A stretch of 64,000 nucleotides of DNA from Psammoneis japonica (lineage: Eukaryota), in NCBI GenBank assembly GCA_008632985.1, contig QPGO01000009.1:248001-312000 (forward strand), in the 5' to 3' direction. The position numbers were made by a program, and so were the translations under genes. Shown here piece by piece: positions 7,195 to 54,879 of this stretch. Within the stretch, counting starts at the first letter, position 1. Every line of letters begins with the position of its first letter. The notes under the pieces were generated by a model that was not told the origin of the DNA, made no database searches, and saw only the letters and a list, made by a program, of their open reading frames with translations.

Positions 7195-9175
7195 CGCCTT
7201 GACGTCTATGCTGCTACGGGCATGCTGGTCATCGCTACTTGATGATGAATCGCTCTCCTCGTCGCTGCTGCTACTACTACTAGAAGACCCCTCGTCGTCA
7301 CTATGTCCGCCAAGAGTCACCATCATGCCAGTATCCTGCTGCTGCTCATCCAATGCGCCCTTTGCTTTGATTCGTTTCTGCTTGCGCATTTCCCGTACTC
7401 GCTCCTTTTCCTGTTGACGATCCTGCTTCATATTATCCTCCAACCGCTGACGCACCTTGTCGACATAGGATTGATTTGCATCCGCCAACGAGTCCGGTAC
7501 CAAAGACGATTCGTTTATTCTTAATATCTGAACCTCCATATCGACCTTGATTCTCTTTGCCTTTCGAGATTTGGTAACTTCATGAATGCCACACTCGGTT
7601 GCGTCTACATCCTCCTGGCTCCACTCGTGCCGTTGCTTTACAGCCAACAAGTCGTCCTCTTCTTTCTCCTCCTCGTTTGACATTTTTGGATTTGCGTACC
7701 TGCGTTCGATCCTTGATTTTTTGTCGAAACCGAAGGTTGGGAGTAAAGGGCAGTCCCAGATGTCACGCCACAGGAAGAAGCCGGCATGTTGGAATTGCTG
7801 AGCAAGTCTCGCGTGCCGTTGAAAAAGTTGGCCATGAACCCAACCAAGACGGTTCTTGTTACCCGACGTGCAGCCTCGCTTGTCGCGTCCAATCCTAAGC
7901 TACAGTCGCTCGCCAAAAAAGCGTTTCAGTCCTATCTACGATCGATTCATCTAATGCCAAACAAGGACATCTTCAAGTTGGATGACTTGGCCGTGGACGA
8001 GTTTGCCACACAACAACGACTTTCCACCACGATTGTACCGTGCTGCTCGTCCAACACGATGAATATACATGTCTTGGTCTTCGGGCGCATCCACTTGAAC
8101 GACCCAATCGACACTTGCAAAGTCCAACCCGCGCGCTACGACGTCTGTCGCAAACAAGACGGCGTTGGGTCGATGGACAAAGTCAAAATAAATAGAGGTT
8201 CGTTCGGTTTGTACCAGCTTGCCATGCAATGCCATGACGGGAATACCGGGTTGAAGGGCACAAAAGAGCTGCCACGCAATGCGTACTTGGGAACACGACG
8301 CCAAGAATATAATCGATTTTGACTTGAGATGTGACTTGATAAAGGAATACACCATGTTGAGCTTATGCTCAAGGGGGGGCACAACGACAGACTGAATCAG
8401 ATTGGATGTAGTAGATGTTGACTCCTTATCGTATGCACCAAGGTATTCGGGTGTTTTCAAAGACAACGCCGCCAAATCAGAAACTCGTTTCCTCTGCGTT
8501 GCAGAAAACAACAAAGTTTGCCGTTCGCTCGGTAGATATTCCAAGATTTGAAGCATTTGATTCCGAAAGCCCATGTCAATTATTCGATTACTAGTATTTG
8601 CAGGTTCGAAACGTCAAGATTTGGTGTCTGTTCCAAGTGCTGCAACAAACGTCCCGGTGTAGCCACGAGTATATTGGTGGATCCAACATGCTGTTGTCTG
8701 TTGTTCGACATGATATTTTTTTGCCGCCCACTACTAGTCCAGCCGACAATGCGTGATGCTGTCCCATCTTTTTCAATACTTGAAAGATCTGTACCGCAAG
8801 CTCGCGAGTCGGGCTTAGAACAAGAGCACCGGGCCCGTCGGATGGAGTGTATCTCGAGCGAAACAGCTTTTCAATAACCGGCACCAGATAGAAACGCAAG
8901 AGTTTTTTCCGAGCCCGTTCGTGCTGCGCCCAAAATGTCTCTTCCACACAGCGCATGAGGAATACAAGCGTTTTGTATTTCAGTCAGGGTGACAAAGTTA
9001 GCTCCATCCAATACACGCAACGTTGCTTCCGACAAAAAAGCGGAGGAGTATACCCTCGATCAGGAGCTTCCGCCGCAATCCGCTGTTCCAGACTCTCAAT
9101 CTCCTGCTCTAATTTTACAACATGTCTCTCATCGCCCTGCTTCTTTTGGGGATAGCGGCGCTTTTACTTGGCCAT
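7180..9175 (-). pseudogene. DBP4: DEAD-box RNA helicase DBP4/DDX10 pseudogene with internal inversion
   Basis: Minus strand carries a Q-motif ([23 protein letters not shown]), motif I altered to RTGSEKT, then [35 protein letters not shown] and YIHRVGRAAR, and an acidic C-terminus. Defects: TAA at codon 4 after ATG 9175, several frameshifts, DEAD motif missing, and ~7761-8010 reads in sense on the + strand (AKKAFQSYLRSIHLMPNKDIF). Confidence 0.85.
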
Positions 9176-9549
9176 GGTCCATGGTCCATGGTGCTTGTTT
9201 CTGCGACAGAAAAGAAAAAGTGAAAACAGAAAAAAAAAAAGTGAAAACAGAAAAAAAAAAAGTGCAGGAGTAGAAAAAATAAGTGGGTTTCTGCGAACAG
9301 CTCAGCACCCATTTGACTCTATCGACTAAAGATCTACAGTGCTCGTACTTGAAAATCACATCTGTGATTAGAGTCTTCCATCTTCGACAGATGCCGTAGT
9401 CCCATGATGCTAGTTACAGCAACACTTTCATCATTTACTATTCTAGTGTAGAGTCTGTAGCTAAGAGAAAGAGGGAAAAATTGCAACACTGCTCCTGTCC
9501 TTCTGTTTGAACTGCAGTTTGCTGCTGCAGATTTGAGGCGCAAAAAAGT

Positions 9550-10601
9550 CCATTTGAAAGCCATTTCCTCCTCCTTTTCCGTTTCGGCATCCCTCTCAAC
9601 ATGGCTTTGCTCTATTTCATTTTGGTCAAAGACTAAATGGGCAATGTCGTGTCCAATCACTTCAATCTCGTGAGCAATCTCTTCCATCTCGTGCTTCAAC
9701 TCAGCGCCAATCTCTTCTGCAGTCATGTGCGGAAAAACAAGCCGTCGGCAAGAATGCATTCACCCTCCATTCCAGTGACACAATGTGGTTCTTCCTCTTT
9801 GAATTCCTTTGTTGAACCAGCAAGAACAGAAAGCCAAAATGTCCAACACAGGCCGTGCACTGACAGAAACGGAATTTGCGGGCTCTCTTTGACAAAACTG
9901 AGCTGTGCAAATTGAGCGGGCATCCACAAGAGCAAGTTCCGTTGCATGAGGGGCAAAAAGTTCTGCTTGGCTCGTTCCAGGGCGGCATTGGCCAACAAGT
10001 TTTGTGCCATTCTTGTCAATGCAAAAAACATGGGACAGTGCAGAAAGGGCACAATCCCCAATTTGCTGGCCAGAGTCTGTTCTGTGGCGGCTGCAAAATC
10101 CATGGGTGCACCCGAAAACACAGATGTCACATGTTGTCCGTGACAGTGCTGTGCAATGACAGGAAATGCCACGTGTTGCAGCACTCGGTGACTCATGTCA
10201 AAAGCTGCAAACGATGCAGCTCATTGCTTGGTGCAGTCGTTGTTGGGTTCGTGCACTTGAGCAATTGAATCTCCCGCAACAGCGAGACCAGCTCCTGTTG
10301 CCATTTTTGTTGACAAGGGATGAGCCACCAATGTGTTCATGTGCACTCCTAAAGTTGGAATGGATGTTGTTGAAGAAGCTGCTGACAGCAATTGCAAGTG
10401 ATGGGGTGCAATCAGTGGTGCCAAACTTGATGATCCTGGCAAGGTGCAAAGCCCGGTCAGCACCACTGCAAACTTTCGACAGAGACGTCTCATGGCAACT
10501 TGTGGAGAAATGCTGCATGTTTCATTCAGATCAGTTTGATGTGCTTTCAAGGAGCTCAAGGCTGTGAGAAGAAGAAGAATGGTCAATGTCCTGTGCTGCA
10601 A
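9550..10601 (-). pseudogene. Mpv17/PMP22-family membrane protein pseudogene, hypermutated
   Basis: Fragments LVAHPLSTKMATGAGLAVAGDSIAQ, AASFAAFDM, EQTLASKLGIVPFLHCPMFFAL and NLLLWMPAQFAQLSFV...QIPFLSVHGLCWTFWLS match the Mpv17/PMP22 pattern. There is an in-frame TGA at ~10221, frameshifts, and no Tyr. Ends are approximate. Confidence 0.8.
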
Positions 10602-12344
10602 CTGAGATGATTTTTCCCGACCTCAGTCTTTGCCAAAAAGACAACAAAACGATGCTGCGCAGCTTGGATGAAAGGGTTTGGTCCCATGGGGGCACACATG
10701 TGCAAGTGCTGTGGAGGCACCACATGTGCGGCAAAACCTGTGGTTGCTCCATTGCACACAGTGCATTGCACCAACACAAAGAGCATGCACTGACACAGCA
10801 AACAGCATGCCAGCAACACATTCTGCAATGACTTTTGGGCAAGCATTGGCAAATGTGACCAATCGTTTCTTTTCAAAAGAGGAATCTCCAAGGAGCTGCT
10901 GCAAGGTTGCTTGCCTCTTTCACTGGTGTGGTGCTCTTGACAAGAAAAACCACCAGCGCTTTTGCCATGACTTCTCATGGCACAAAGAGAGCAAAAAATG
11001 CTGGCTTGAGAGTGCTGCTGCATCTCTGCCAGCAGTGCTGAAACAACCAGACCAACCCACACTTTCATTGCAATGAGTTGCAAAACTAAAAAAGTGACTT
11101 CAGCTGGCCAAGCTTGTTGCCACTGCTGCTGGTGCAGTGAGCTTGGAGGAAGAGGAGAGAGGAGAGGGCACTGAGCAGCATGCCAGCCAAAGCAACAGAG
11201 GATTTTTGACCCCTGCCATTGTTGAAAACTTGTGAGCTCTCATCAGCTCAATTTTTGGAAAGCTTCCCCAGCACCCAGCATTTTTTGAACATTGCCTGTG
11301 GCATGCCCAGGGGGCATGTTCTTGGTGTGCTTTCCCCTCCCCCCCTTGAGACCCGCCTCCTTGCTTTTGTCAGAATGCTGCCAAAAGCATTTGCTGCCAG
11401 CTCTTTGTTCTCTTGCAGTCAGGACAAGCCCAAGTGTGACCCAGTCAAGATGTGACAGCTGTGACTCTCAGCACACATTGCCTGCCACCCTGAAAAGCAG
11501 CTCATGGTGCACAGCACCTCTCTTGAGCTTTGCACCTTGTCCTCTCAAGCTTCCTCTCTGATGTGTCCTCAGCCCAAAAAGAAAGATGGTGAGGAGGCCT
11601 GCTGTGTGGAGCAGAGATGTCAAACATGCAGCCATGGAAGGCAGGCACCAAGGACTCCAACAGCATGGTTTGGTTGCTCTGTGTGACCACTGTGTGGCGT
11701 GCCAAGCTGTGGTCAAAGGCCAAAGCACTGGTGGCCTTCAAGACATCCAAAGTGACAACAGAGAAAGCAACATGAAGCAAGTGTGCATTTGAGGTTGGAG
11801 GCAGACTCTGTCTTGACCAAGTGTGCTGTTGTCAACTTGTTGAGATGGCAACAATCTTTTGAGTGAGTTGAGGATTTTGACCCAAGATTTGTTTGGCAAT
11901 GTTGTGCTGCTTTTGGCTGAGCTGCACAGTCAGCCATGAAACAAAGCATTGCTGAGAAAATGAGGGCTTCATTTTTTGTGGTGGGCACAAACTCCATTGC
12001 CATGTCTTGGCCACCCCAGGTCAAATGCCCCTGAGTGGCTGCACCAATGGTGTGCAAACTGTGTTGTTGGAGACCACAGTCCTTGCTGGCATGATCATCA
12101 CAAAGGCAGGTTGTGTGGTGGACACACACCCATGTGTTGTCACTTTGAAAGACCTTGCAAACATCACTCAAGGTGGATGACTTGTGCAGAGCTCATGCAC
12201 TCTTGGAGCACAACTCAGCAGCAGTGCTTTTGCATGGTCACAGCCCCCACCTCCTGCCAGTCAAAAGTGCTTTGCACACCTGGTTGAGTGTGGGGCAGCA
12301 GAGTGCTGGTTGCTGATGTGGCATCTGGGGCAGACTTGTCATTG

Positions 12345-14300
12345 CTGCAAACACTGAGCACCATGAGCCCCACACCACTTCAAAAGATCCTCAACAGACT
12401 TGTTCCAGACTTGGGTGCGCAAACGTGCAAAAAAATGCCCCTTTTTGCATGAAACACACAGCCCAAACTGCAAACACTGAGCACCATGAGCCCCACACCA
12501 CTTCAAAATGAGTGGACTGGCCCAATTGTGGTGTCTTTGCACTCTTGATTTGGGAAACTGCAAGCCTTGTTTTGGGCAGCAGCAGCCCCTTGCGTGATTC
12601 CTCCACAATTAAGAAGATGCCCAGCTGCACAAGGTGTGGAAGCATGAGGCCCACAGATGTGGCAAAGGAGGTGGTGTGCAGTTGTCTCGGGATGGCATTG
12701 GAGGACTCCAGTGGGTTGCCACCAGGGACATGCCAACAACCATGGTTGGGGAGCAAATGCCTTGTCTTGAATCAATGCAGCACCTTGAATCTCTGACACC
12801 ATGACTGGCTTTGGCACAGCCAGCCAACCTGCAGAGACAAGGGAAGCATCTGTGTGACAGCACAAGTGCTCCTCCATTGTCTTGGGATGGCATTGGATGA
12901 CTCCATTGGGTTCCAGAGGATGCAATGACAACAATGGTTGGGAAGCAAAGACCTTGTCTTGTGTCAACACAGCACCCTGTCTCTTTGACAAGACTGGGTT
13001 CTCTGGCCCAGCCACCCCACCTGCAAGGACAAGAAAACCATCTGTGTGAAAGTGCAAGTGCTCTGTTGTCTTGGGGTTGTGTTGGATGACTCCATTGGAT
13101 CCCAGAAAATGCATTGGCAACAATGGCTGGGAAAAAAGGCCTTGTCTTGTGTTAATGCAGGACCTTGTCTCTCTGACATGACTGGGTTTGGCCCAGCCAC
13201 CCCATGCGCAGAGACAAGAAAACCATCTGTGCAATGGTGCAAGTGCTCAGTTGTCTTGGGGTGGCTTTTGGTGACTCCATTGGATCCCAGAGGAGCCAAC
13301 AACAAGAATGGCTGGGAAGCAAAGGCACTGTCTTGTGTCAATGCAGCCCTTTGTCTCTCTGACATGACTGGGTTTGGCACCTTGCCACCCCACCTGCAGA
13401 GACAAGAAAACCGAGACAAGAAAACCATCTGTGTGCCCAGTTGTCTTGGGATGGCCTTTGGTGGTTCCATTGGATCCCAGAGGACACAACAACAACAATG
13501 GTTGGGAAGCACAGGCCTTGTCTTGTGCCAGTGCAGCATCTTGTCTCTCTGACATGACTGGGTTTGGCCCAGCCAAGAACCAATTTGCAAGAAAGACAAG
13601 GGAGCCATCTGTGTGACAGCACAAGCACTCAGTTGTCTTGGAATGGCACAAGAGACTTCGTTGAGTCCCTGAGAAGGCAAAAACAACAATGGTTGGGAAG
13701 CAAAAGCCTGGCCCTGGGCCAATGCAGCCCCTTTTTCTGTCTCATGTGATTGGCTTGCTTTGGCCCAGCCAACCCACATGCAGAGACAAGGGAGCTTTCT
13801 GCACCGTGTGATAGCACAAGTGCCCAGTTGTCTTTGGATGGCCTTGGGTGCCTCCATTGTGTCCCAGGGGAGCCACCAGCAACAACCAGGGCAGGGAGTC
13901 ACTGAGTGGAAATTCATGGTGTCACCTCTCTCTTGTTTGGGTGAAAAACCAAGAGAGAGCAGATGAGCATGACCCACCTTCAAGTTGCCCACTTTCTTTG
14001 CAAGGTTGGTCTCCAAAGTTGTCATTTCACTGGAATGAAGGGTCTGTTTCTGAGCTTTCTGGGGAGAGGCAATTGTCTTGTTGGCAGCGGCAATTTTTGA
14101 ACACACCAAATGGCAAAAAGGTGTTGATTGAACAAGTCCCAGAGCTGGGGCGAGTGTGCAGCACAAGGAGTGTGAAAATTTCAATCTCAACAAGAACACA
14201 TTGGTGTGATGGGGTCAAACTTTTTGTTGAATGCATGCATGACATTGACAACTGAATGATTCATTGAGGTTGTTTCAAACCTTTCAAACCATTCAAACCA
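12345..14300 (-). repeat. Diverged tandem array of ~185-190-bp units (family A) plus flank; inverted homologue of ~50470-52700
   Basis: CTCTGACATGACTGGGTTTGGC-like anchor recurs at ~12790, 12981, 13170, 13356 and 13546, and CAATGGTTGGGAAGCAAAG-like anchor recurs each unit. A 41-bp direct repeat lies at 12345 and 12468. Confidence 0.85.
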
Positions 14301-15073
14301 TCATGTTGCAACCAAATCCTTGATTTTTCAAGCAAAACTGTTGCTGAAAAAGAGATGCCAATGGGAATCAACTGATGGTCAGGCTTGCATTTTGGCCAAA
14401 AACACAAATTGTGGCTCTCCCTCACAAGACACAAAAAATGCAAACTCCAGTCACATGCAATGGGGACAGGCAACGGCATTGCGGATCATGGGATGGAACA
14501 AAATGCAGGACACAAGACACAAGGTGAGAAAACAAGAGTGGCAAATGCATGGAGATTGGGTGCACAATGCAAACAACTGATGTTTGCACACATCTTTGCA
14601 CACAGACATCTGGACATGCAACCTGAGCTGCAACGGAAGATGGGCAATGGGGGGAAGGGCACAAAGGCAAGCAGAAGCAGCACATGAGACAAGATTCCAA
14701 GAAACACAAGACATGCACAAGACCTGGTCATTGGCACAAAATTTTCTCTTGTTGCAGGTGATGCTTTGGTCTGCCAAACAGAAGGAATGCAAGACAGATT
14801 GTTGCAGGACAACGCGGTTGCCTGGTGCAGATGATTGCAGAGAGATTGAGAGTGGTCGCACAAGGGAGGACACAAGGACCAAAACATCACACCCATCTGG
14901 AGCTGGTGGAATGCAGGAGAAAAACAAGAGCGGGAAAAAGGGAGCATTTTTTGGTGTGCAGTGCAGAAATGACAAAATGGAACATTTGCAAGTGAGATGA
15001 CAAGTGGCACACAGCCGATGTGCAATCAGGTTGTCAAGTCAATTGAATGTCATCATTGTCAGAAATGAACAAT

Positions 15074-15835
15074 TTAAGATGGAAACAAAAGCAAATGACA
15101 AGTTTCATGGTTGGCGGTCACCACATTTTTCGACATTCCGCAGGGACGAGTTGGCGTCGTAGTCCACGAATGCGACAAGGTCGGACGCGGGAACTTGAGG
15201 ACGGCCTTGGCAACAACGCAAGGACCGGATCGTGTGTTGCTCTGCTCGAGTAAAATGTCCGCTTGAATGATTGGTGGTTCCGCAAGCCAACTCTTCATGG
15301 CATCAAGTGTAGCCATTTCAAAATCGTCGGGATCCGCGTCGGACGGGCAAGGCTTGAACACGAGTTCAACGCCTGCGAAAATGGACCTTGTGGGAGCAGA
15401 AAATAAAGTGGAAGCGCTCTTGATCACACAATCCACAGCAGTGTCCATTCTCGGCACTTGGGATGGACTTTTCATCACAATAGCCAAGGTAGAGCCTTGA
15501 CAGGTAGTGGAGTGAAACTTGAAAATCGGTTCGACTCGAAACTTGGTGGCAAGACGCGCGAGTTTCTCGATGTACGATTTGAACCAAGCGCCATGCGAAT
15601 TGAAGTATACAGCATTGACATTCGAGTATGGAACAATCGAAAGAGACTCTTGGGAAGTTGGGGTGAGAATGAATTGAGTCGTCCCCGCTTTCTCATCGTC
15701 GAAAAGCTTCTTCGAGATTGGCTCCAACGGGAGAAAGACGGCAAAGGCGGCGAGAACGGCTTTGCTCACCAAAGCGACGACACTGCCAAGGATGGCAGCA
15801 AAGAGGACACTACAGATCAAAAGGACGATCGACAT
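15074..15835 (-). CDS. Hypothetical protein with hydrophobic N-terminus
   Basis: ~250-aa ORF in normal-composition DNA starting MSIVLLICSVLFAAILGSVVALV. No recognisable domain. Confidence 0.35.
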   Translation of the reverse strand: MSIVLLICSVLFAAILGSVVALVSKAVLAAFAVFLPLEPISKKLFDDEKAGTTQFILTPTSQESLSIVPYSNVNAVYFNSHGAWFKSYIEKLARLATKFRVEPIFKFHSTTCQGSTLAIVMKSPSQVPRMDTAVDCVIKSASTLFSAPTRSIFAGVELVFKPCPSDADPDDFEMATLDAMKSWLAEPPIIQADILLEQSNTRSGPCVVAKAVLKFPRPTLSHSWTTTPTRPCGMSKNVVTANHETCHLLLFPS

Positions 15836-17399
15836 GGTTGATAGAGGTTGGTAGTTACCGCAGCGATACAGTGTCAAAAGACCAGGTGTCCGTGTTGTGA
15901 GAGCTGAGCGTGGGAGAATTTCTCGTTCGGATTTTCGAGGCTTTGAGTGTTCAGTACCAAGGCTACATGGGTTCTACGTACAGAGATTTTGAAATTCAAG
16001 CGTGATTCAAGGACTGGCACGTTTTTATTTTGTGATCGAAACCTAACGACAATCTTTCCTCTTCCCCAAAGATGGCCAATACCGGTTCTGAGACTTGTGA
16101 CGTACCGACTTTTTGACTGTCTGGTGATGATTTGATGGCTCCGTGATGTCGTCGTTTCTACAATGCCTACGTACCAACACAGCTAAAGTCAAACGTTCTC
16201 GGCGACATTATCCTACGTATTGTTACTGTGTAAAAAGCTAATAGATCTCTTTCGAATATTTCATTATATTCCATCTAGTTTTGTTTACCGGACGATAGAA
16301 TTCCGTTTTCGTTTTGCGACGCGACATGCAATTGAGCAACGTAGTTACCGAAACTGATATTGTTTGGGGTATATCATAATCCATGCTCTCTATTGACCGA
16401 GCTCCTTCTGATGGAAGCATGCCATTAAGAAGCACTTCTTGAGAAGTAGGGACGGCAGCGCCTCTTTCTTATCGAATTTGTACGTGTTCGTTCTCCCTTG
16501 AGTTGATCCACCAGTACAGTTGCCCTGGTATTCAAAATGCCGTGTTTTCCCGTCATTTGCACCACCCCACGGAGTCGCTTTCCGTGATTGACTCGGAATA
16601 TACTAGCCTCCAATGATATTACTTCGAGTACAAATGATGCAATAATATGCGTCCCCCGTCGGTCCGGTTTCTTGGTGTTGTGAGCTTGAAGAAGGGTCGT
16701 AGTGACTGGCACGCTGTATTGTTCACGGAGAGAGAGACAGAGTAGGATGAGCACGACCTCGCTGCTTTCAAGCCGCAGTCTTGATGGGGATTAGCTAGGA
16801 AATTTTCGGGAAAAGCGTTTGTTTCTGCGATTTCGATTCTCCAAAACAACGAGTTTGTGCGTCAACAGAGCCACGGTCATATCCCATTCGTCGTCGAATC
16901 GCGAATCGGCAACACGTGAAGCCTTGTGCTGGACTCTATCATTCACAGCCAAAAAAGCATGGGGTGCAGTAATGTCACTTCTTGAATCTGGAAACGGATG
17001 TTACCCTCTCTTGTCGCACTGTGTGCTTCTGTTTTGTAGTCTTAAAACGTTGAACCTGCTCATCGTCAATTTTCTTGGAAGCAAGTTCTCGAATTTCAAA
17101 ATCCCTTGTGGACGAGAGACATGCCACGTGGAAGCAAAAAACTTTCTTCTGTATTTGGCACCCAAACAAACCGCCAAGCGAGCTCACAAGGATGCTGACT
17201 GCGACAACGAGCGAGCAACAAAAACGAGAAGATCGGTCGCCGGTCGCTCACCTCATTTCACAACGAGTGTTTGTTGGACCATGTTCTTCCTAATTTGTTC
17301 AAGCAAGGTCCGAGCCTGACCGAGATTGTCAGGTGCTTTGATGAGCCAGACAACAGTGCAAACACGTTTCAGTCGAGTGGAAAGCCGACGAGCTTCATG

Positions 17400-19100
17400 C
17401 TTGATGCACTGAATGCGCTGGCACACGACGACCAGCTTGGCTTGATTTTGTGCCCACTTCCAGCTGTCTTGCCCTGACCTGGTCACCACCATTGAATCAC
17501 TCATCAAGTTTCTCCAGTGAAATTTTGATGTGTGTTTTGCAACATTTCACGGGCACTTGAGGCGCAACGAAATTTGGTTCAGCAGCCACAACAACAACAG
17601 GGTGCTGGTGTGGGCTGGACTCTGGAGCATCAAGCCACACAGTGTGTTGAAGATCCTCAAGTTGAGCATGTTGGAACTCACCTCCAGAATCACCTGGCTT
17701 TGGCTTGAGTTGCAAATGACAAGGTTGATCCTCCTTTGTTGCTGGTTGTTTCCGATTTTGGCAGCAGTCTACATTCAGAACAGCAGCTGAGGAGCTCTCT
17801 TTCCAAAGCTGTTGCATTAAAATCAAGGCCATGAGGTTTGGAAAGCTCCGCACACTTGATCAATTTGCACGCATGGAATTGATTCAATGGACAAAAGTGC
17901 ACAACAACCTTCTGCCTGATGGCAGTGACCTGCATGCTAAATGTGTTGGCTTGGCATTTGAATTTGCCCATCTGATCTCTGTCATGCCTTGCCTCATGCA
18001 GAACGCACCCATCTGATCTCTGTCATGCCTTGCCTCATGCAAAACAGAGGGCGGGATGTAAATCGCGGTCATCTGAAAGCGTCTTTCTGATTTCTTGGTC
18101 TGTGGCAACAAGTCACTGTTGATGTTGATGATTGGTGACAGGGTGCTTGGAAATCGTGTGCCAAGCCAAAGTCCAGATGCTGATGTGTTGGACAGAGCAG
18201 GGGCCAACGCGCAGCGGCATCAGAAATGACTCATTTCCTGGCACCGGCAATGCCCGACAAAGATCCACAAGGCAAAGTGGTGCTCGCGCATTGGTTTCAT
18301 CTGAGCAAGTCTCGGACATGTCAAACTGAGTCCACCTTTCCCAGTTTTGGGTTGGCCAAGGGTTGCCTGACGGGACAGATGCAGATGAGTTTTGCAGCTG
18401 CGTCATGCTCACATCACTTGGGTGAGCTTGAAGGGACCCTTCCCACCGGCATGGGCGACAACCTCAAATTGAATGGGAACCTGGCCAGTCGCTGCAGCAT
18501 TCGCCCCAATTTGTCACAGATTCAATTTCTGACACATGGTCCAGACGTGCCATTTGAAAGATGGTGTTGCAAAGGTCAATCCAGGGGTGAGCTTGTGACC
18601 TGACTCTCAAGGATCCGGCGGCTGCAGTGCGTTTTTGCAGCGCACTTGCGTGTCTGTTCGAACGCAGAAATGAAGTGCCGAGGAGATGGCACAGAAATCT
18701 TCTTAGCAACTGTTCACGAAAGCTGGTCTTGGACGCCTTTTTCCTGTCTCACCCAGGATCCCAAGAATGTCACTCTCAGTGGAACCAAGCAAGACACCAA
18801 GAACAAAAACAGGATCATCTTCAAGATTGGTTTGCACTTCCTCCGCAAGTGTGAACAGCAGTCGGCAGCACATGCATTCCAACAAAAGGCATGAACAAGC
18901 TGCAGAAAAGAAGTTGCAGGAGGTGCAACATTGGGGCAGAGTGTTGACGAGTGCCAACGTTGATCGGTTGCAAGATGTGAAAAGAGCAGCAAGTCTCGCA
19001 GCGAAGCCTCTACAAATGTCAGTGCTCAGGATGGGCTCTGAACACATGAGAAAGTCCAGACGCTTGGCGTGGAAAAAAGTCAATGGGCATTTGCACCTGC
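17400..19100. other. TpA-depleted block 2 (decayed unidentified sequence)
   Basis: Very few TA, with Tyr nearly absent from track ORFs. CpG is less depleted than in blocks 1 and 5. A 34-bp direct repeat CCCATCTGATCTCTGTCATGCCTTGCCTCATGCA lies at ~17967 and ~18008. Confidence 0.7.
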
Positions 19101-28489: not shown

Positions 28490-31000
28490 TTCCCCCAACA
28501 CTGGCACTTAAGCCGCGGAGCCATTTTTTCCACTTGTGACAGAAATCGTGTCTTGCGTTGACCCCAAATGGTGTCAGGGAATCTGGGCTGATGGAGAATT
28601 CCAAGAACGACACCCAGAATTTGTGCAGCAGCTGAGCAAGGAAAACAGCAAAACCAAAGCCATCCGGCTCCTCTCTGCAACTCTTTTGTCCAAAGCCATG
28701 CACCTGCCACACAGTGACAACAACCACACATCAAGAAAAGGCCTTGCAGAAGCAATGTTCATTTCTTGCATCGCCAATGGGGGGGCAAAAGCAGCGTGGT
28801 TTGGTTGGCCATGCACGTGCTTCTGTGTGGGCCAGACTGTCTTTTTCAAGCACTTGGAAGCCATGACCCACATTGTGACCGAGGCAGCAGAAACGTGCAA
28901 CATCTTGGACAGTTGGAAGAAACACTTGGTTCCATCCATGGAGGAGCAAAAAGTCTGAACCTTTTTGATGAAATTGAGGGGTTGGGTGCACTGAAAGCTG
29001 AGCGCCACATCGTTGAGCCAATGTCTCGCCATCAAGCATTTTGGAGTTTCGCCCTCTTGCTCTCAGTTGCAAAGTTTGACCTGTTGCTGCCACAGCAGGT
29101 TAGAGCTGGCAGCAGTTGTTGGGTTGTCTTGTGCAGAAATTGCGCTCACAAAATGACAGCATTTTTTCATTCTCGTGTTTTTGCAGGCAGCCTCAGCTCT
29201 CAAACTTCCTGTGAGACATTTCCCGCCAACCACGTCAAACTGACAGATGCTCTCAAGGATCATTTCTTGGCTGGATTTTTGCTGCTTTGCACAAGGATGA
29301 AAAGAACTCATTGCAAGTTAGAAATTGAAGCACCCCACTGCGTTCCCAAAGGATGGAGACAAGCATCTGATGCAACTGCTGCAGATGAGAAGGACACTGG
29401 GAAGAACGATGCAAGGGGAAACTTGAATTTTGTTTCAAGGCATGGCAAAAACACAGCAAAAAAAAACAACACAGACTGGTTGCATGATTTTCACCATGTT
29501 TTGCTCACTTCTTGAAAAAGTGGAGAACATGTTTCCCACAGGACAAGCAATGAAGGAGTTCATTGGGATGATGGCAGGTCTTGATTTTCTGCCTTTCTGA
29601 ATGCTCCTTGACTGCAACGAAAAAAAAAAGCATCACAGCAAGAAGTGCAATGGGAAGGAAATGTTTTGAATGGGTTGAACACTTCAGAAGACATTTCAGG
29701 TGCAACTTGGAACCAGCGATGTAAAAGAGATGCACTTCACAGTTCGACTCACATGGAGAACTTCATGAGAGAGCTCACTCATGCATTGGATGGCAAGAAA
29801 GGCCCACAAAACCTGTGCAATGCCTTTTTCTGTGGAAGGACGTTTGCGCTGATGTTGGATTGATTGAAGACAATGGTGGACTGCCGAAGATGAAATGGAT
29901 TCCACAAAATCTGTTTCTGAGCACTGTTCACCAGCTGAGGAAGCAGGAGTGTACAAAACAATGGCCGCCATTGCAGAAGAGCTTGACGGTGCTTTGGACA
30001 TGTCTTGTTTCCAGTCGCGAGCACGCCACCACCAAGCAAAGTTGGGTTTTGCACTCCAGCCATGCCCTGTCGAAGAGATTTCAGAGGCTTGCGAAGACAT
30101 CCTCAAAAGGAGGCATTGAACGAATTGAAGGTGACGGGGACACCCACCCATGAGCGAAAGCGACCCCGCTGAGATGATCGCTCCGAACCATCATGATTTC
30201 AACAGACACCAAGAAAGAAGACGTCGAAGAGGTTTATTCATTTTATATGATGACAACTTTGAGTCATTCTTCCTCGTCGTGTTTTGGACCACATGTTTCA
30301 TCGTCGTGTGAAGGCATTGCGAAAGACGCAGAGCATCCCCTCCTGGAATGCTCAACCGCAAACCAAGCCAAGCTTCATCATTCATCAGCTAAATTGCCAG
30401 TGCATCAAATAAAGAACGAAACACTGAAAAGCTGCTGCCTCTCCTTGCGTTGGCTTTTGGACCACACAGCCAGCTATGCAAGAGCGAGCTTCCAGCTAGA
30501 TTGTTTGCGTCCCTTGGCAGTTACAATCTGCCAGTGCTCAGAGACCACTTAGTGATTCATGAACACGTGCCGACATTGCAGAGTTCATTGCACAGTGGAA
30601 ATCAGAGAACTGCAATGGTTGTGAAGTGCGGTTGCTTTCTGGAAAAAACCAATTGTCCGGTGAGGAGAATCAGAACGTCGTCAAAAAAAGTTGATGGAAA
30701 CGCTTGGGGCATCAGAGATTCAGAGCTTACGACTTTGCTTCTCAGATGCCAACGACGTTTTGGTTTCTTGACATAACACTCGTCTTCTATACAGTGATGA
30801 TATTGAGGCTTACCGCGAAACGTTGCTAAACTCAAAAACAATGCAAACGTCCAATGAGTAACAATGCCGTTCAAGGGAATGCACACATTCAAGCAGGGCT
30901 TGATGGGGACCACATTTGATCAGAAGGTGTGTTGCAAAGGATGGAGCTTTCAGCAGATCGAAGAGATGGAAACGGCCTTGGTTGATCAGTGTGTGCATTC
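28490..31000. other. TpA-depleted block 4 (decayed unidentified coding sequence), depletion fading toward ~30.2-31 kb
   Basis: Abrupt shift from the AT-rich promoter (28250-28450) to near TA-free DNA, with fragmentary protein-like + strand ORFs lacking Tyr. Confidence 0.65.
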
Positions 31001-40826: not shown

Positions 40827-43169
40827 TTAACGCGAATGACTTGGCGAGGCCATGGGTGAGTCATCAGGCGAATCCATACTGGGCGAAAAGGCGACAGCGT
40901 CCTTGCCATCCTTGCCGTCCTTGCCGTCCTCACCGTCCTTGCCATCCTCGCCGTCTTTGCCGTTCTTGCCATCCTCGCCGTCCTTGCCGTCCTTGCCATC
41001 CATGCCGTCCTTGCCGTCATCACCGCTGGAACCGTCCTTGCCGTCGACGCCGTCCTTGCCATCTTCACCATCCTTTCCGTCCTTACCGTCGACGCCATCC
41101 TTGCCGTCCTCGCCATTCTTGCCGTTCTTGCCGTCCTTGCCGTCCTCGCCGTCGTCGCCATCCTTGCCGTCAACGCCGTCCTTTCCATCGTCGCCACTTG
41201 ATCCGTCCTTTCCGTTGACGCCGTTCTTTCCGTCCTTTCCGTCCTCACCATCTTCGCCATCCTTGCCGTCCATGCCGTCCTTGCCGTCGGCTCCGTCCTT
41301 GCCGTCCTCACCATCCTTTCCGTCGGCACCGTCCTTGCCATCCTCACCGTCGGCGCCGTCCTTTCCATCGGCGCCGTCCTTGCCATCGTCGCCGCTGGAG
41401 CCGTCGGCGCCGTCCTTGCCGTCCTTTCCGTCCTTGCCGTCGTCGCCATCTTCGCCATCCTTGCCGTCCTTGCCGTCGACACCATCCTTGCCGTCAGCAC
41501 CGTCCTTGCCGTCGGCGCCGTCCTTGCCGTCGTCGCCACTTGAACCGTCCATTCCGTCTTTGCCATCCTTTCCGTCGGCGCCGTCCTTGCCGTCGGCACC
41601 ATCCTTGCCGTCATCACCGTCCTTTCCGTCCTTACCGTCGGCACCATCCTTGCCGTCATCGCCATCGGCACCGTCCTTGCCGTCGGCACCGTCATCGCCG
41701 TCCTCACCGTCCTTGCCGTCGGCGCCGTCCTTTCCGTCCTTGCCGTCCTCGCCATCTTTGCCGTCCTTTCCGTCGGCGCCGTCCTTGCCGTCATCGCCAC
41801 TTGCGCCGTCCTTTCCGTCGGCGCCGTCCTTGCCGTCATCGCCGTCCTTTCCGTCGGCACCGTCCTTTCCGTCATCGCCATCTTTTCCGTCCTTTCCGTC
41901 GGCACCGTCCTTTCCGTCATCGCCATCCTTTCCGTCCTTGCCATCATCGCCGTCTTTGCCATCCTTTCCGTCGACGCCATCCTTGCCGTCTTCGCCATCC
42001 TTGCCGTCGGCACCGTCCTTGCCGTCGGCACCGTCCTTGCCGTCATCGCCACTTGAGCCGTCGGCACCGTCCTTGCCGTCCTTTCCGTCAGCACCGTCCT
42101 TGCCGTCATCACCGTCCTTGCCATCGTCACCGTCCTTGCCGTCCTTTCCGTCGGCACCGTCCTTTCCGTCCTCGCCATCCTTTCCGTCGACACCGTCCTT
42201 TCCGTCGGCTCCGTCCTTTCCGTCGGCACCATCCTTGCCGTCATCGCCACTAGAGCCGTCCTTTCCGTCGGCACCGTCATCACCATCTTTCCCGTCCTTT
42301 CCATCGGCACCGTCCTCGCCATCTTTCCCGTCCTTGCCGTCGGCACCGTCCTTGCCATCGGCGCCACTTGAGCCGTCGGCACCGTCCTTGCCGTCTTTGC
42401 CGTGCCTGCCGTCGGCACCGTCCTTACCATCTCTGCCGTCGGCACCACTAGAGCCGTCCATTCCGTCCTTTCCATGTCTTCCGTCTCGGCCATCCCTTCC
42501 GTCCTTGCCGTTTCTGCCGTCCCTTCCATCGTGGCCGTCTTGTCCGTCGACACCGTTCCTTCCATCTTTGCCATCCTTTCCGTTCACACCGTCTGCTCCC
42601 TTTTCTCCCTTCTTTCCATCTTTACCATCCTTTCCGTCGTGGCCGTCCTTCCCATCTTTGCCATCTTTTCCGTCTTTACCATCCTTTCCGTCTTTGCCGC
42701 GATCGCCCTTTACTTTCCAGTAGACGTACGTTTCCGAATTGCTGCAATCGCTCATACCAGAGACCAAGCGGATGTACTTGTCCATCTTCATACAGACATG
42801 AACGACACCTCCCATGTACATTCCTGGTCCAGAACCTGAATGAGATTCCGGAGAAAGCCTCGTCTCCGACTTTCCAAGATGACGACGACGCATGCTTGTC
42901 TTCTCTTGAGGTTGTTGGACTTCTCCGCTAAGATCAGAAGCACTCAAGTGGACATACTGCTCGTAAGAGCTGCAGCCGTCTCTACTTCCGACAAAGCGAA
43001 CATCCTTGTTGTTTGCAACACATCCATGGATCGAGCCGCTCACACTCAAACTGCGAAGTTGGCGAATGTCGTTTTGCGGGCCCGGTCCGCGAAGGCCTCC
43101 TGTCTCAGCGCCTTGCAAAGGGGCGGCCAAAAGCGCCAATAGCGCGAACTTTTGAACCAGCACTTTCAT
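40827..43169 (-). CDS. Secreted collagen-like protein with ~200 uninterrupted proline-free Gly-X-Y triplets (GKD/GAD/GED/GDD)
   Basis: Signal peptide MKVLVQKFALLALLAAPLQG, two small Cys-pair modules, then Gly at every third residue from ~42712 to ~40900. Synonymous codon variation between repeats supports coding on the minus strand. Confidence 0.85.
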   Translation of the reverse strand: MKVLVQKFALLALLAAPLQGAETGGLRGPGPQNDIRQLRSLSVSGSIHGCVANNKDVRFVGSRDGCSSYEQYVHLSASDLSGEVQQPQEKTSMRRRHLGKSETRLSPESHSGSGPGMYMGGVVHVCMKMDKYIRLVSGMSDCSNSETYVYWKVKGDRGKDGKDGKDGKDGKDGKDGHDGKDGKDGKKGEKGADGVNGKDGKDGRNGVDGQDGHDGRDGRNGKDGRDGRDGRHGKDGMDGSSGADGRDGKDGADGRHGKDGKDGADGSSGADGKDGADGKDGKDGEDGADGKDGKDGDDGADGKDGSSGDDGKDGADGKDGADGKDGVDGKDGEDGKDGADGKDGKDGDDGKDGDDGKDGADGKDGKDGADGSSGDDGKDGADGKDGADGKDGEDGKDGVDGKDGKDGDDGKDGKDGDDGKDGADGKDGKDGDDGKDGADGKDGDDGKDGADGKDGASGDDGKDGADGKDGKDGEDGKDGKDGADGKDGEDGDDGADGKDGADGDDGKDGADGKDGKDGDDGKDGADGKDGADGKDGKDGMDGSSGDDGKDGADGKDGADGKDGVDGKDGKDGEDGDDGKDGKDGKDGADGSSGDDGKDGADGKDGADGEDGKDGADGKDGEDGKDGADGKDGMDGKDGEDGEDGKDGKNGVNGKDGSSGDDGKDGVDGKDGDDGEDGKDGKNGKNGEDGKDGVDGKDGKDGEDGKDGVDGKDGSSGDDGKDGMDGKDGKDGEDGKNGKDGEDGKDGEDGKDGKDGKDAVAFSPSMDSPDDSPMASPSHSR

Positions 43170-44825: not shown

Positions 44826-46399
44826 CATTCCACTGCACGAACTTCGGTCAGACATTGAGTGACATCATCCCCGCGCCCCAGTTTGATTGCCGCTGTAGTT
44901 GTGCTGATTCTGTTGTTTCTTTTGCCCCTCAAGAGCGCGGCACAGTGAGCTGTTTTTTAACTTGCAAGGGCTTGGGATGAAACACCCTTCTCCTTCACAA
45001 CAGCTGGTGCTGCAGCTTTCAATCTCTGAGCTGCTTGCGCAAGAGTGACAGGGGCACAAGCAGCGGCTGTGCGAGGCCTCGCTTTGGCAGAGGCAACAGG
45101 CAGCACTTGCACGATGGTCGATGCGGAACATGGTCTGCAAGCAGCCATTGTTGGCACAAGCTCTTTTTCTGTCAAAAACCTTGCCCCCTGAACAAGCTCA
45201 CCAGCACATCACAAGCTCTTTGCTGCCCCCAGCAGCGAAACAGAGGTGGCAACCCAGCCGCCGCCAGCCTCACCCGCAGCCGCTTTTGGTCTTCTTGCCA
45301 CATGTTTTTGAGCTCCAAAAAAGCTCTTGTGTGACACAGGTTGAGTTTGGCATGGCGCAGCACTGCTCCACAAAGTGCCAGAGCCATTGCTTGAGAGAGA
45401 CAGCACCAGATGGAATGGGGTGGCAACAAATGGATCAGACTTTTTTGACTTCAAACAAGAGCAACCCTGTTTGCAGCAACAAGCCCAAACCAAGGCAAGC
45501 ACCAGCACTTTGGCTCCTGGAGGAGAGGTGCAAAATGCTCAAGTGCACAGCCACGTTTTCAAAATTGCCGCGGCTGAAAGAGCTGCGCTGCGCAGAGCTC
45601 TTGCAAATTTGGAGTGGTGAGCAGCGCATCTCTCAGTCACATTTCTTGATCCAAGAATCTCGCATCTTTTTTGAAGCTGTGTGCAATTCTTGCCATGCCA
45701 GCTGTTTCCCAGAACAATTGCTGGGAGAAGTTGTGGTCTGACACAGCTCTTTTTTCTGCAGCTCTGAGTGAGGTTGAATGCAAAGCGTCAGCAGCTGCTG
45801 CCTCCCATGATGTTGTGTGCTCTTTTGCAAGATCTTGCTCCATGGTGAAGGTTTGAAGCAAGTGGCCTGTGGCAACAAGCTTGTCTTCTGCCAAGCCCAA
45901 CCCTCAAAATGTGGTCATCTGGTCTGCTTTTTCTTCTGCCAGGCCCGCCCCCCCAAAGTTCAGCCTTTGAGACAACTTTTCTTCTGCCAGGCTTGCCACC
46001 CCAAACACAGCGACTGTGAGCCAGCATGTTGGGAAATCTCAAATGAGCCAACTGTGTGGGAGCACTCAGAGCTGTTGGCAAGTCTGGATGGTCAGTTTTT
46101 AACTGAGCTGCACCTCTCTTGGCCCCGCGGCTGCCACCCTGTTTGCCCTTGTTGAGAGCCAGCCTCAACTGCTGCCACATTTTGCCAACTCAGCGACACA
46201 TGCTCTCACTGCTCCCTTGCCTCTCACTGGTCTTTCTGTGTGCCCCCAGTTGCTGAGGGCCACCCCAAGAACCTCTTTGGACTTTTTTAGACTCATGTGC
46301 TGCAACATGCAGGTCAAGTGACTCCTCGTTCTTCTTGACATTGTCAATCTGCACAGCAAGGCACCCTTTCTGCTGTTGACCCCCCTGGCAGGTCACAAG

Positions 46400-48640
46400 A
46401 AATGTGTGCCCTTTGTCAAGCTGCAGCTCCACATGATGGGAGCTTGCAGAGAGTGCCAGCATTGCTTGGCTGGGGTCCACCAAAGACTGCCAAAGCTCTC
46501 AGCTTGCAGCTGTTGCATTGTCTGGTGGTGCCATCATGGGACCCCTGCACTCTTGAGTTGGGAACATCAAATCTGCTCCTGTTGGAGACAAGGTGATGTG
46601 GGGCCACAAAACCAAAACATCAACCTTGCAATGCCCAGCAACAGCTCTTGAAGTCTTGCCACAGACACTGTCAGTGTCCTCTGCTGGCAGCTGTTGGGTT
46701 GGTTGGCACCATCGAATCCTTGCATTCTGGAGTTTGGAGACTTGCTCAAGTCTGCTCATGTTGGGGCCAAGGTGATGTGGGGCCACAATGTCACAAGATC
46801 AATTTTGCAACACCCAGCCACACTTTTCAAAGTCCCCCTGGAGTCCACCAAACACTGCCAGTGTGTCCTTTGTCAGAAGTTGTTGGGATGGCTGGTGCTG
46901 TCATGGGGTCCTTGCACTCTGGAGTTGGGAAAGTCAAGTCTGCTGCGGTTGGGGGCAACATGACACAAGGCCACAAGGCCACAAAACTGACCTTTCAATG
47001 CTCAACCACAGCTCTCAAAGTCACACCTGGAGCCTGCCAGACACCAACAGTGCCCTCAACTTGCAGTTGGGAGGCTTGCTCATGTCATCATGTGCCCTTT
47101 CACTCTGGAGTTTGGAGGCTCAAGCAAGTCTGCTGCCAATGGGGACCAGAGATGATGTGGGGCCACAACACCACAAGACCAGCACAGTTCTCAAAGCAAT
47201 GCCTGGGGTCCACCAGAGACAACCAATGCCCTCAGCTTGCAGCTGCCTGTCAGGTTGGTTGGTGCCATCATGGGATTCCTGCACTCTTGAGTTGGGAAAG
47301 TCAAGTCTGCTGCTGCTGGGGACAAGGCAACATGGGGCCACAACACCACAAGATCAACCTTGCAATGCTCAGCCACAGTTCTCCAAGTCTTGTCTGGGCT
47401 TCACCAGACACTGCAAGTGTCCCCAGCAGCTTGCTGTTGTCAGGTTGGTTGGCGCTGTCATGGGGGGGACCTCTGACTCTGGAGTTTGGTGACTCAAGTC
47501 TGCTCCTGTTGGGGACAAGGTGACATGCTGCCACAACACCACAAGATTGATCTTGCAATGCCCAGCAACAGCTCTTGACATCTCATCTGGGGTCTGCCAG
47601 ATGCAGCTGCTGGGTTGGTTGTTGGCACCTTCATGGGATCCTTGCACTCTGGTTCTGGGAAGCTCAAGTCTGCTCCTCCTGTTGGGACAAGGTGACATGG
47701 AGCAATCACACAAGAAAGGTGCTGCACTGCTCAACCGTGGTGGTTGTTGCAGTGTCACCTTGGCCAGTGCTGTCATGGGGTCCTTTCATTCTGGAGTTGG
47801 GAAAGTCATCTCAAGTCTCTGCTGGCGGCGGTGGTGACAAGGTGACATGGGGCCACAACACCACAAGATCAACCTTGCAATGCTCAGCAACAGCTCTCAA
47901 AGCATTGTCTGGGGCCCAAAAAGGACTGCCAGTGCCCCCCGCTTGTTGCTGTCAGGTTGGTCAGTGCCATCATGAGATCCCTGCACTCTGGAGGTTGGAA
48001 GTTCAAGTCTGGCATTGTTGGGGACAAAGTGACATGGGCCACAACACCACAAGATCAGTGCATTGCAATGCCCAGCAGCAGCTCTGAAAGTGTTGCCTGT
48101 GGTCTGCCAGATGCCACCAGTGTCTTCATCTTGCAACTGCTGGGTTGGTTGGCAACACCACCATGCAGCCCTTTTGCATGCAAAGTTCTTGGGAAGTTCA
48201 AGTCTGCTCCTGCTGTTGGGACAACATGACATGGGGCCACAACCGCCAAGACAGGCCTTGCTCTGCTTGACTGTGGTGGTTGTTGCAGTGCCACCTGGGA
48301 TCCACAAGAAACGCAGCCAGTGCCCTCAGCTGCACGTTGTCTGCTTGGTTGGTGCCATCATGGTGGGTCCTTTCATTCTGGATTTGGGAGTTTGAAGCTT
48401 GCTTCTGACTGGGAGGATGCAAAAGGGCACTGCAGCTGTGCAACACCAGCCTCACACTGCTCAATGCTCAGTCAACCACAGCTCTTGGAGTGTCACCTGG
48501 GGTCTGCCAGAGACCACCTGTGCCCTCAGCTTGCTGTTGCTTGTTGGCTGGGCTGGCTGGTGCCATCATGGGGCTGCTTTTCTCTGGAGCTGGGAAGTTG
48601 AAGTCTGCAACAACCTTCTGGGGACAAGACTGAATTGGCA
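46400..48640 (+). repeat. Diverged tandem array of ~175-195-bp units (family B), about 12 copies
   Basis: GCACTCT(T/G)GAGTT...CAAGTCTGCT...GACAAGGTGA...GGGCCACAACACCACAAGATC anchors at ~46547, 46722, 46914, 47101, 47281, 47475, 47645, 47787, 47983, 48374 and 48580. Confidence 0.85.
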
Positions 48641-50469
48641 TGGGCAGCTTCTTGTTGAGGAGGAGGAGGAGGAGGAAAAGGAGGAGGAGAAGGAGGAACA
48701 TGTTGGCAGGAGGAAGTGCTGCAGCTGCAGCGCCCCCTGTCTCTGGGGGCTGCTGCTCTGGCTCTTTGTGGGCACACATCCAGCAACATGGTTGTGCTGT
48801 CTGAGACCACCTGCTCAACCAACTCAACAACCCCAACCCTGCAAGTTTCAACCATGATGAGAAGCAACATCAACAAAAGTTGTTGCATGCATGTGGATCA
48901 GCTGCAAAGATCAGCTGCAGTGCAGCAGCCCCACAGACACAAGCACTGGAGACAAACAAAAAAGCTGTGTGGGCCAGCACAAATGTGAAAATTTCTTTCT
49001 CAACAAGAGCTGGCCAAGATCACAAAAATGAAACATGCGCCAGTCTCTTTTGAAAACAGACATGCTGCACTTGGCTGAAGCAGTGCTCAGCACCCGGCAC
49101 CCAGCTGCCAAAAACAAATGACAACTCACAAGCAAAATGCGCTGGCAGCGAAGACCAGCTGCACAACAAAGTGCTTCATTCAAGTTGACCCAAACAGTTT
49201 GAAGCTTCAAAAACAAGTGCAATGAGAGGCCTTTTAAAAAAAATGACCACTTTGTCTGGAAAATGTCGTTGCTCTTGTTTAGAATCCATTCTTTCTTGTC
49301 AAGAATCCTGCTCTCTTAACAAGGGTTCATTGATGCTGCACAAATGCATTTTGACAATTTTGTTTCAACATGCCAAGTGGGATTTAAGACTTAAAATGAA
49401 TCAGTTTCACTCTGAATGCAGTCTTGATGATCAGCGAACAATTGTCATTTTGGAATCCGCCAACAATCAAAACAACATTCCAAGCAGGAAATGAGTCTCA
49501 ATGAAATCTGTTGTGCTCTGATGTGCACGTCTCATCCAGCATTTGCTGACTGCAATTCACCTGCATTGTTCAGTTCTGACAAACAATGAAGCTCATTTGC
49601 GCTGATGACTTCACAATGCACAGTTGTTTTGCTGTTTAATTTCTGGTTTGTGTCAGCTCTAACATGTCATTTCCACACTAAAAGAAAGGCACTGTCTTGT
49701 TTCCTGTTCCTCGTCCATGTTGTTTCTTTTCCCTTGCAAGTTCCCTTTTGTCCTCCATTGCCAACACACCATGTTGTCCTGCACTTGCAGAGGGTCGATC
49801 CCCTCCAATCACTGTCTCTCCATGGTCTGTCTCAGAAGTGTCCGGCAGCTGTTGCAACCCCACTCTTGCCTCTTGCCCATCTCTTTTCTTGCCCACGGCC
49901 TTTCCTGAAACCTGAGAAGACAGTGTGCAAATGTTCTTCAGTGTTTGGCATTTCTGTTGTGTTTGACCTGCTTGTCAAACTGTTGCTGCTCACCTTTTTC
50001 CATCTGCATCTCCATCACTCTCCTCTGCGCTCACTTGCTGTGTTGTCACAATGCCTGTGTGCAATGTGAGATGATTCCTGTTTGGTGCATGTCTGTCATG
50101 TTCGCACAGCTCATCACACTGCTGCTGCTGCTCACCTTTTTTGCATTCCTTCCCCCCTGACTCTCTTGTGCACTCACTTGCTGTGTCGCAACGATGCCTG
50201 TGTGCAACGTGCAATGTTTCCCATCAGTGCAAGTTTGTGTGCCTCACTTGTCCCAGGTCACTGTCTCTCTGTCTCATGCCTTGTGTCCCACATTTCCCCC
50301 TTCTCCTCTGCAACTCCACCTCCTCTCCCCGCCACTCTCTCCCTCATGGTCTTGGCTCTCCCGTGTGTTTTTGTGCTTTGTGTCGTGTGAGGAAATGATG
50401 ATGGCTGATGTTTTTGCAGCAATGTTGAGCCTGTCTGCCTGGTGATTCCTGCCAGCATTGGTTTTTAAG

Positions 50470-54374: not shown

Positions 54375-54879
54375 TCAACCCTTCAACCACCGGACTTGAG
54401 CAAATCTCCACGGGTGGAGATTTGCTCCCTTGCATCACAAATGCAGTGAGTGAAGCAATTTCAGATGTGGGCAATGTCAAATTTGCGCAATTTTGTTTTG
54501 GAGCGCGCACTCGCCAAAAATCTCGGGGAACCCTTTTTGCAATTTAGAAAGTTCAATGTCGACTTTTAACACCGGGTTTTTGCAAGCTGCATTTGTGAAC
54601 AGAGGAGAACCAAATCTCAACCTTTGACAATGTAGGTTGTCATGAACTGCTGTTGCAGACAGACCAACAATGCCACACCCTTGGAGCAAATCTCCGCCGG
54701 TGGAGATTTGCTCCCAATGAGCAAATGCACGTGGCGCACTTCATGCAGATTCTGTGTGACATGACATTTTTGTGCTGTGTTCATTGTGTCATTGTAAAAT
54801 TGCACGACACATCACACATCCTCAAGCAGAGCAAATCTCCACCCATGGAGACTTGCTCCCCTGGTGGTTGAAGGGTTGA
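54375..54879. mobile_element. piggyBac-like MITE (~497 bp, 54379-54875) with ~50-bp TIRs, three 30-32-bp palindromes and apparently mutated TTAA target-site duplications
   Basis: Left end TCAA|CCCTTCAACCACCGG...GAGCAAATCTCCACGGGTGGAGATTTGCTC. Right end GAGCAAATCTCCACCCATGGAGACTTGCTC...CTGGTGGTTGAAGGG|TTGA. CCC...GGG termini flanked by TTAA are the piggyBac signature. Confidence 0.75.

Follow-up and report, generated by a model that had tools for sequence, protein, structure and literature searches.

A putatively dead Mpv17/PMP22 duplicate in the diatom Psammoneis japonica, within a tract that probably underwent regional TpA to TpG/CpA mutation

Introduction

Repeat-induced point mutation (RIP), known from Neurospora and other ascomycetes, converts CpA to TpA; it creates TA dinucleotides and stop codons, lowers G+C and mutates both copies of a duplicate. 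It requires a cytosine methyltransferase of the RID type and takes place at a premeiotic stage. Methylated CpG in silenced repeats decays to TpG or CpA. APOBEC or ADAR editing of retroelements acts on single-stranded cDNA or RNA and is seen as strand-coherent runs of C-to-T or A-to-G changes.

A mutational process directed at TpA has been described in Bigelowiella natans, a chlorarachniophyte (rhizarian). Integrated giant-virus and virophage DNA is reported to undergo TpA hypermutation in mutation-accumulation lines of this alga (Mettrop et al., bioRxiv 10.64898/2026.01.13.699255). Of 211 single-nucleotide mutations in the giant-virus region, 210 were transitions from A to G or from T to C, all on TpA, and the same held for all 20 of 20 mutations in the virophage region, the rate being about 1000 times background (10.64898/2026.01.13.699255). 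Moreover, TpA-poor clusters rich in CpA and TpG are reported from the B. natans genome, where they are enriched in transposon-like domains, with some host-like ones, and an ADAT-like adenine deaminase is proposed by the authors in the same text (10.64898/2026.01.13.699255). No report of such TpA-directed mutation in a diatom was found in the literature searched; this one 2026 preprint, on an unrelated alga, was the only described counterpart found, and the diatom case is apparently undescribed.

Here, we describe a tract in a diatom, Psammoneis japonica, that resembles the B. natans case in A:T to G:C changes at TpA giving TpG or CpA according to strand. The change from TA to TG or CA was found ten times among 40 listed differences between two copies of a gene, with no case of the reverse, and at five of five invariant Tyr codons. 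Both cases also show strong regional restriction (TA observed/expected ratio, hereafter obs/exp, 0.01-0.04 inside the diatom tract and 0.58-0.63 outside), TpA-poor tracts rich in CpA and TpG, and host-like sequences among those affected. The B. natans rate was measured directly on viral inserts, whereas in the diatom the process is read from the duplicate of a host gene and from repeats; what is affected here is this gene copy together with unclassified repeat DNA, not foreign viral DNA. The near-complete erasure of TA in the diatom tract is accompanied by CpG loss, and the preprint text available to us makes no mention of CpG or of diatoms. The stretch analysed, hereafter the window, comprises 64,000 nt of assembly GCA_008632985.1 (contig QPGO01000009.1, positions 248,001-312,000, forward strand), and all positions are those within this window.

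Results

A disrupted Mpv17/PMP22 reading frame

The frame at 9550..10493 on the minus strand was read from an ATG at 10493-10491, across a 2-base insertion at 9734-9733, to 9553 (253 + 60 codons, 313 in all), with TGG at 9552-9550 in the place of a stop. It matches the Pfam profile PF04117 (Mpv17_PMP22) with an E value of 8.8e-11 and 42.1 bits against a cut-off of 27. Protein-database searches returned 155 relatives at E <= 1e-3, the best being 65% identical over 91% of the query. The named relatives, similar over their full length, are diatom proteins annotated as Mpv17 or peroxisomal membrane protein, from genera that include Amphora, Craspedostauros, Seminavis, Cyclotella and Epithemia, among others.

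The initial annotation had recognised here an Mpv17/PMP22 frame without tyrosine, and this is borne out. All five of the peptides it quoted are present in the minus-strand translation (GVHMNTL at 10349-10329, NDCTKQ*AASF at 10241-10209, FDMSHR at 10202-10185, PFLHCPMFF at 10049-10023 and EEPHCVTG at 9794-9771), and the 313 codons include 19 for His, eight for Cys, one in-frame TGA and none for Tyr, versus 6-13 Tyr in each of 19 aligned orthologues. The frame is not the intact one of a functional member, since it carries the in-frame TGA, a frameshift of two bases and no stop codon. The frameshift consists of two extra T in a T run (9733..9734, minus strand), at which the reading frames switch; a second version of the gene, described below, is without these two bases in both sequencing runs that cover it. 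Fifteen of 87 conserved columns are changed in the window copy. Judged on these features, the frame at 10493-9550 would be a duplicated and now dead diatom gene for a membrane protein of the Mpv17/PMP22 family.

A sister copy in the same sample

Run X1 contains 99% of the words sampled from 9300-11300. The assembly may derive from this run, which may hence not be independent of it. Contigs of X1 and two runs of the same sample were aligned to 8500-12400 at 80% likeness. The window version is matched by a 1402-base X1 contig over 9645-11046 with 0 differences. A second version was found in X1 as 726 bases covering 9999-10567 (80 differences and 11 gap positions) and in X2 as a contig of 1087 bases over 9483-9850 (34 differences) and 9922-10546 (82 differences). 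Over the gene X2, which is labelled 'DNA?', contains the sister version only, with no cover at 9286-9416 or 10596-12400. The frame had been called a gene copy from the outset, and at least one other version is indeed present in the same sample. The orthologue P0001 was considered as a candidate for this sister and rejected: it differs from the sister in the sole stretch that is readable in both, and the second version is therefore a same-sample sister copy and not a database orthologue.

The comparison of sister and window rests on 40 differences listed of 318, with 60 indels beyond those listed. Ten of the 40 are sites where the sister has TA and the window TG or CA, the reverse being seen nowhere; six have CG in the sister and TG or CA in the window, against one in reverse. 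The remainder comprise 12 other transitions and 12 transversions, which indicates that the two copies are old relatives that have diverged to a large extent in ordinary ways. Changes of the TA and CG type form a one-sided layer over that divergence. The initial annotation expected substitutions to be concentrated at TA and CG; the direction agrees with this (10:0 and 6:1), whilst such sites make up only 16 of the 40 listed differences. Besides that at 9733, the indels listed in the coding part of the sister are -3, +3 or a +1/-1 pair five bases apart, which fits an open frame in the sister without being proof of one.

The two versions could also be diverged alleles of one locus, the window being a decaying haplotype. 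Their contig depths are alike (71.5 for the window version and 58.9 for the sister), the stretches 10730-11046, 11251-11644 and 12017-12280 also have diverged partners of similar depth, and the neighbouring DEAD-box helicase copy likewise has an unbroken, near-identical partner. However, the X1 sister contig has 162 bases unlike the window past 10567, and alignment of the sister pieces ends at about 9483. Moreover, the ordinary divergence (24 of the 40 listed differences, 12 of them transversions) is far above the roughly 1% seen in the helicase partner, and other-copy depths of 137-245 in the 3′ part suggest more than two versions. Although it survives better than the other alternatives, the allelic explanation appears unlikely; a paralogue is favoured over a very diverged allele by the flank that fails to match and by the extent of ordinary divergence.

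Polarity of the codon changes

The window frame was aligned with 19 orthologues (alignment A1). Five Tyr columns, 20, 56, 71, 121 and 122, are invariant across the orthologues, the first in 18 of 18 and the other four in 19 of 19. The window codons at these columns are CAC (His, 10341..10343), TGC (Cys, 10233..10235), CAC (His, 10188..10190) and the adjacent pair CAC TGT (His-Cys, 10035..10040), all on the minus strand. Sister differences at 10040, 10038 and 10036 turn the His-Cys pair into two Tyr codons. At column 90 the window has CAT (His, 10131..10133, minus strand) where the orthologues have Tyr in 12 of 19, Phe in six and Val in one. A further CAT (His, 9783..9785, minus strand) lies in a C-terminal Tyr-Cys-Val motif; five orthologues have Tyr here, as read from A1, and the sister letter at 9785 makes the codon TAT. 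Seven Tyr codons have thus given five His and two Cys. The polarity is read from both sister and orthologues for three of the seven, and from the orthologues only for the other four and for an Arg/TGA codon.

All five invariant Tyr columns are changed, whereas among the 82 other columns with conservation of 90% or more the number is 10 (Fisher P 8e-5). These data indicate that Tyr is ancestral at the five columns. The initial annotation had deduced from family patterns that TAY had become CAY or TGY, and the comparison agrees: every invariant Tyr column now holds CAY or TGY, and the homologues carry Tyr there, not His or Cys, in 18-19 diatom orthologues, as does the sister at three codons. Reversal of TA- and CG-type codon changes accounts for nine of 15 conserved-column mismatches, in a weakly discriminating test in which control dinucleotide models account for 0-7.

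An in-frame TGA at 10221..10223 (minus strand) occupies Arg column R60, which is at least 90% conserved, and CGA to TGA would be the simplest path to it. The same origin had been suggested for the CAA that precedes this TGA; that part does not carry over so readily, as the CAA may be original (P0001 has Gln). At the C-terminal end, the supposition that AAA-TGG is a read-through of a former TAG gains support from two sides. A plus-strand T at 9551 in the sister gives TAG on the minus strand in place of the window TGG at 9550..9552, and P0001, P0002 and P0009, orthologues with the same acidic C-terminal tail, stop where the window reads Lys-Trp.

A tract almost free of TA

The gene copy lies in a tract (9463..15074) with seven TA in 5612 bases, poor in CG and with TG and CA about doubled. 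Within the gene part (9463-10600) TA obs/exp is 0.04 and CG obs/exp 0.46, with three TA versus 42-54 expected from the TA ratio of the flanks (Poisson P ~1e-15 or less); in the rest of the tract (10601-15074) the values are 0.01 and 0.10. The flanks have TA obs/exp of 0.58-0.63 and CG obs/exp of 1.05-1.12. Across the tract TG obs/exp is 1.7-1.9 and CA obs/exp 1.6-1.8, and the G+C of the erased DNA stays near 0.49. In the corresponding coding stretch of 57 orthologous loci from metagenomes, which served as a control, TA obs/exp is 0.25-0.95, with a median of 0.65.

The loss of CpG is confined to the same tracts (CG obs/exp 0.10-0.46), in which respect it is like the decay of methylated CpG, and it is most simply explained by this ordinary decay. 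The loss of TA cannot be accounted for in this way. The erasure of TA is complete in both parts of the tract, with CG reduced by half in one and by nine-tenths in the other, which argues that TA is lost faster than CpG and by a process that can be separated from CpG decay.

The tract is observed to be sharply confined. On the left, the last ordinary TA is at 9462 and the first sister TA lost in the window is at 9515, which places the edge within about 50 bases; the sister pieces cease to align close by. This sharp edge may represent a junction of old mutated DNA with a younger inserted segment and not a limit of the process. Past 10567, where the X1 sister contig departs from the window, the TA-free state persists for another 4.5 kb, and TA and dense CG return at about 15075-15160. 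An ORF of 299 codons without a Pfam match lies at 15074-15973 on the minus strand and ends at TTAA; its last 30 or so codons (15077-15160) are TA-free and rich in TG and CA, and the right edge of the tract may fall inside its 3′ end.

Six units of a ~190-base tandem repeat lie inside the tract (12518..13885). This repeat recurs at 50991-52676 in another TA-free tract, in opposite orientation and with 70-86% identity. The long ORFs searched with Pfam yielded no match among 19 (of 24 ORFs of at least 90 aa) in 10600-15038, and no viral or transposon domain was found in the long ORFs of the tract; the ORFs of the other TA-free tracts in the window likewise gave 0 matches among 21. No LTR or terminal inverted repeat was found flanking the tract. 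The initial annotation held that the process strikes ordinary gene copies as well as transposable elements. The first half stands, as a host-gene copy is struck; as regards the second, no transposon protein was recognised in the TA-free tracts of the window. As a check of synteny, two pieces of the DEAD-box copy and the right-hand ORF were searched by tblastn against the 57 orthologous loci, with no match.

TA obs/exp falls below 0.15 in 268 of 636 overlapping 500-base windows of the 64 kb (42%). This proportion, together with the avoidance of intact genes by the tracts, would fit a mutation bias against TA and CG that acts on the whole genome without targeting and becomes visible wherever selection is absent. 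However, the non-coding spacer adjoining the tract (9160-9462) is dense in TA, ordinary regions including spacers are at TA obs/exp of about 0.6, and the edges are sharp. A bias of this kind is an improbable explanation. The TA-rich spacer that separates the tract from the DEAD-box copy includes 2.9 copies of an A-rich 21-base repeat (9206-9264). TA-poor DNA of another kind is found at 41084-42251, which is 64% G+C and without TA, and in which CG obs/exp is 1.3-1.6 and TG is low.

Sparing of the sister and of a neighbouring duplicate

The copy next to the spacer (7951-9060, minus strand) belongs to a DEAD-box helicase, presumably DDX10/Dbp4-like. It is broken by three frame changes, its DEAD motif is gone and GSGKT reads GSEKT. 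Near-identical versions in X1 and X2 (0-3 differences per 121-242 bases) are without seven bases at 8691 and without four bases at 8886. The composition of the copy is ordinary, with TA obs/exp of 0.58 and CG obs/exp of 1.12. From these features it would be a young pseudogene or degenerate allele that was spared by the erasure.

These two gene copies bear on the possibility of a RIP-like defence, in which duplicates are sensed by homology and then mutated. At least two copies of the mutated gene exist, and part of the tract is repeated elsewhere in the 64-kb window. RIP and the diatom tract also share dense dinucleotide-specific transitions in non-genic or duplicated DNA, with genes killed by missense and stop changes. 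However, RIP mutates both copies, whereas the sister is seen to be spared, retaining its Tyr codons and TAG stop, and the DEAD-box copy, despite near-identical versions in the same runs, has normal TA and CG. The sparing of both argues that duplication alone is not the trigger and that homology sensing of the RIP kind fits poorly. Moreover, the chemistry is opposite. RIP proceeds by C:G to T:A changes, mainly CpA to TpA, and so creates TA and stops and lowers G+C, whilst the diatom process destroys TA, removes TAA and TAG, and doubles TG and CA. A RIP-like mechanism is thus improbable, and position in a silent, repeat-bearing domain appears to fit the data better.

Changes on both strands

The ten TA-type changes between sister and window comprise four CA and six TG on the plus strand, interleaved, two of them being only four bases apart. 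Both strands have therefore been hit, which argues against an origin by editing of just one strand of RNA or cDNA. One such scenario is ADAR-like A-to-I hyper-editing of RNA, followed by reverse transcription and insertion as a retrocopy. Homology to the sister is colinear over about 9483-10567, which is about the 1087 bases of the X2 contig and would suit a retrocopy. One edited RNA strand would, however, leave changes of one strand type, whereas CA and TG types alternate here. Moreover, the TA-free state extends 4.5 kb past the gene copy into unrelated DNA and a satellite, a poly(A) remnant past the 3′ end is absent, and CpG loss is left unexplained. This makes an edited retrocopy very improbable. 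More broadly, APOBEC and ADAR editing resembles the present case as a deaminase-type, context-dependent hypermutation of selfish or foreign sequences, but it is strand-coherent, whereas the diatom tract has both strands affected in resident DNA that includes a host-gene copy.

An artefact of sequencing, base-calling or assembly is scarcely credible: although X1 may be the assembly's own data, so that their agreement is not independent, both the TA-free version and the sister that retains TA are recovered from the same run at comparable depth, the changes make sense at codon level against 19 orthologues, a single contig switches between ordinary and TA-free DNA at sharp edges, and a similar tract is present on an unrelated metagenome contig (L052).

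Context of the surviving TA sites

Surviving TA sites were counted over four large tracts (9463-15074, 17291-19011, 28509-29722 and 44958-61866). There are 53, of which 42 lie in TTAA (23) or CTAA/TTAG (19). These contexts account for 11% of the TA found in ordinary DNA of the window and, within the tracts, for 18% of TG/CA sites, so that the enrichment among survivors is strong against either (binomial P ~1e-31 and 1e-22, respectively). None of the 53 is in ATAT, ATAC or GTAC. In the gene copy three TA survive, two of them in CTAA and one in ATAG. Such a distribution would reflect a flanking-base preference of the erasing process. A rule by which the base after A sets which strand is hit was also tried; it fitted only two of four informative Tyr codons and was rejected.

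Related signatures in other diatoms

Metagenome contigs from other diatoms carry the same signature beside intact Mpv17 orthologues, at L052 901-1700, L022 2401-3900 and L021 3901-4885. On L052 there is no TA at 1013-1494, and over 901-1500 CG obs/exp is about 0.3 and TG 1.8-1.9. On L022 TA obs/exp is 0.13-0.29 and CG obs/exp 0.07-0.33. A TpA-erasing process may extend beyond the P. japonica genome.

Discussion

Taken together, these data point to a dead Mpv17/PMP22 duplicate inside a tract that underwent regional TpA to TpG/CpA mutation after the duplication, a reading to which we assign a probability of roughly 0.8. On this account an Mpv17/PMP22 gene would have been duplicated, one copy ending up as the left end of a 5.6-kb repeat-bearing tract. 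A regional process would then have converted TpA to TpG or CpA by A:T to G:C transitions on either strand, site by site, until almost no TA was left in the tract, with decay of CpG to TpG or CpA accompanying it at a slower pace. The expected outcome is that each Tyr codon becomes His or Cys, TAG becomes TGG and an Arg codon becomes TGA, the 2-base insertion being a separate event.

The conversion itself may be an enzymatic deamination of adenine in DNA to hypoxanthine, which is read as G, and the process may take its direction from chromatin state, in silent or repeat DNA, and not from sequence duplication. For these two steps taken jointly we would give even odds. A more far-reaching proposal, to which we give slightly less credence, is that diatoms possess a dedicated eraser of TpA acting on DNA, probably an adenine deaminase, aimed at silent chromatin, sparing TTAA and CTAA/TTAG, and either shared with Bigelowiella or convergent on its system. 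Such an eraser would rewrite a whole domain together with any host-gene copies captured in it, at a pace exceeding the decay of methylated CpG, and might serve genome defence or heterochromatin-linked editing; this extension is put forward just as tentatively.

A host gene that has numerous orthologues and a sister spared by the process provides a ruler, in that the direction from TA to TG or CA is set by outgroups. The Mpv17/PMP22 ruler further indicates that both strands are struck, that duplication is not sufficient and that TA erasure runs ahead of CpG decay. There are also practical consequences. TA-free tracts without TAA or TAG stops give rise to long false ORFs, and pseudogenes within them appear Tyr-free and rich in His and Cys, so that gene prediction and composition-based binning can be misled. 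If the process is enzymatic, it would represent adenine-directed DNA editing in a major phytoplankton group.
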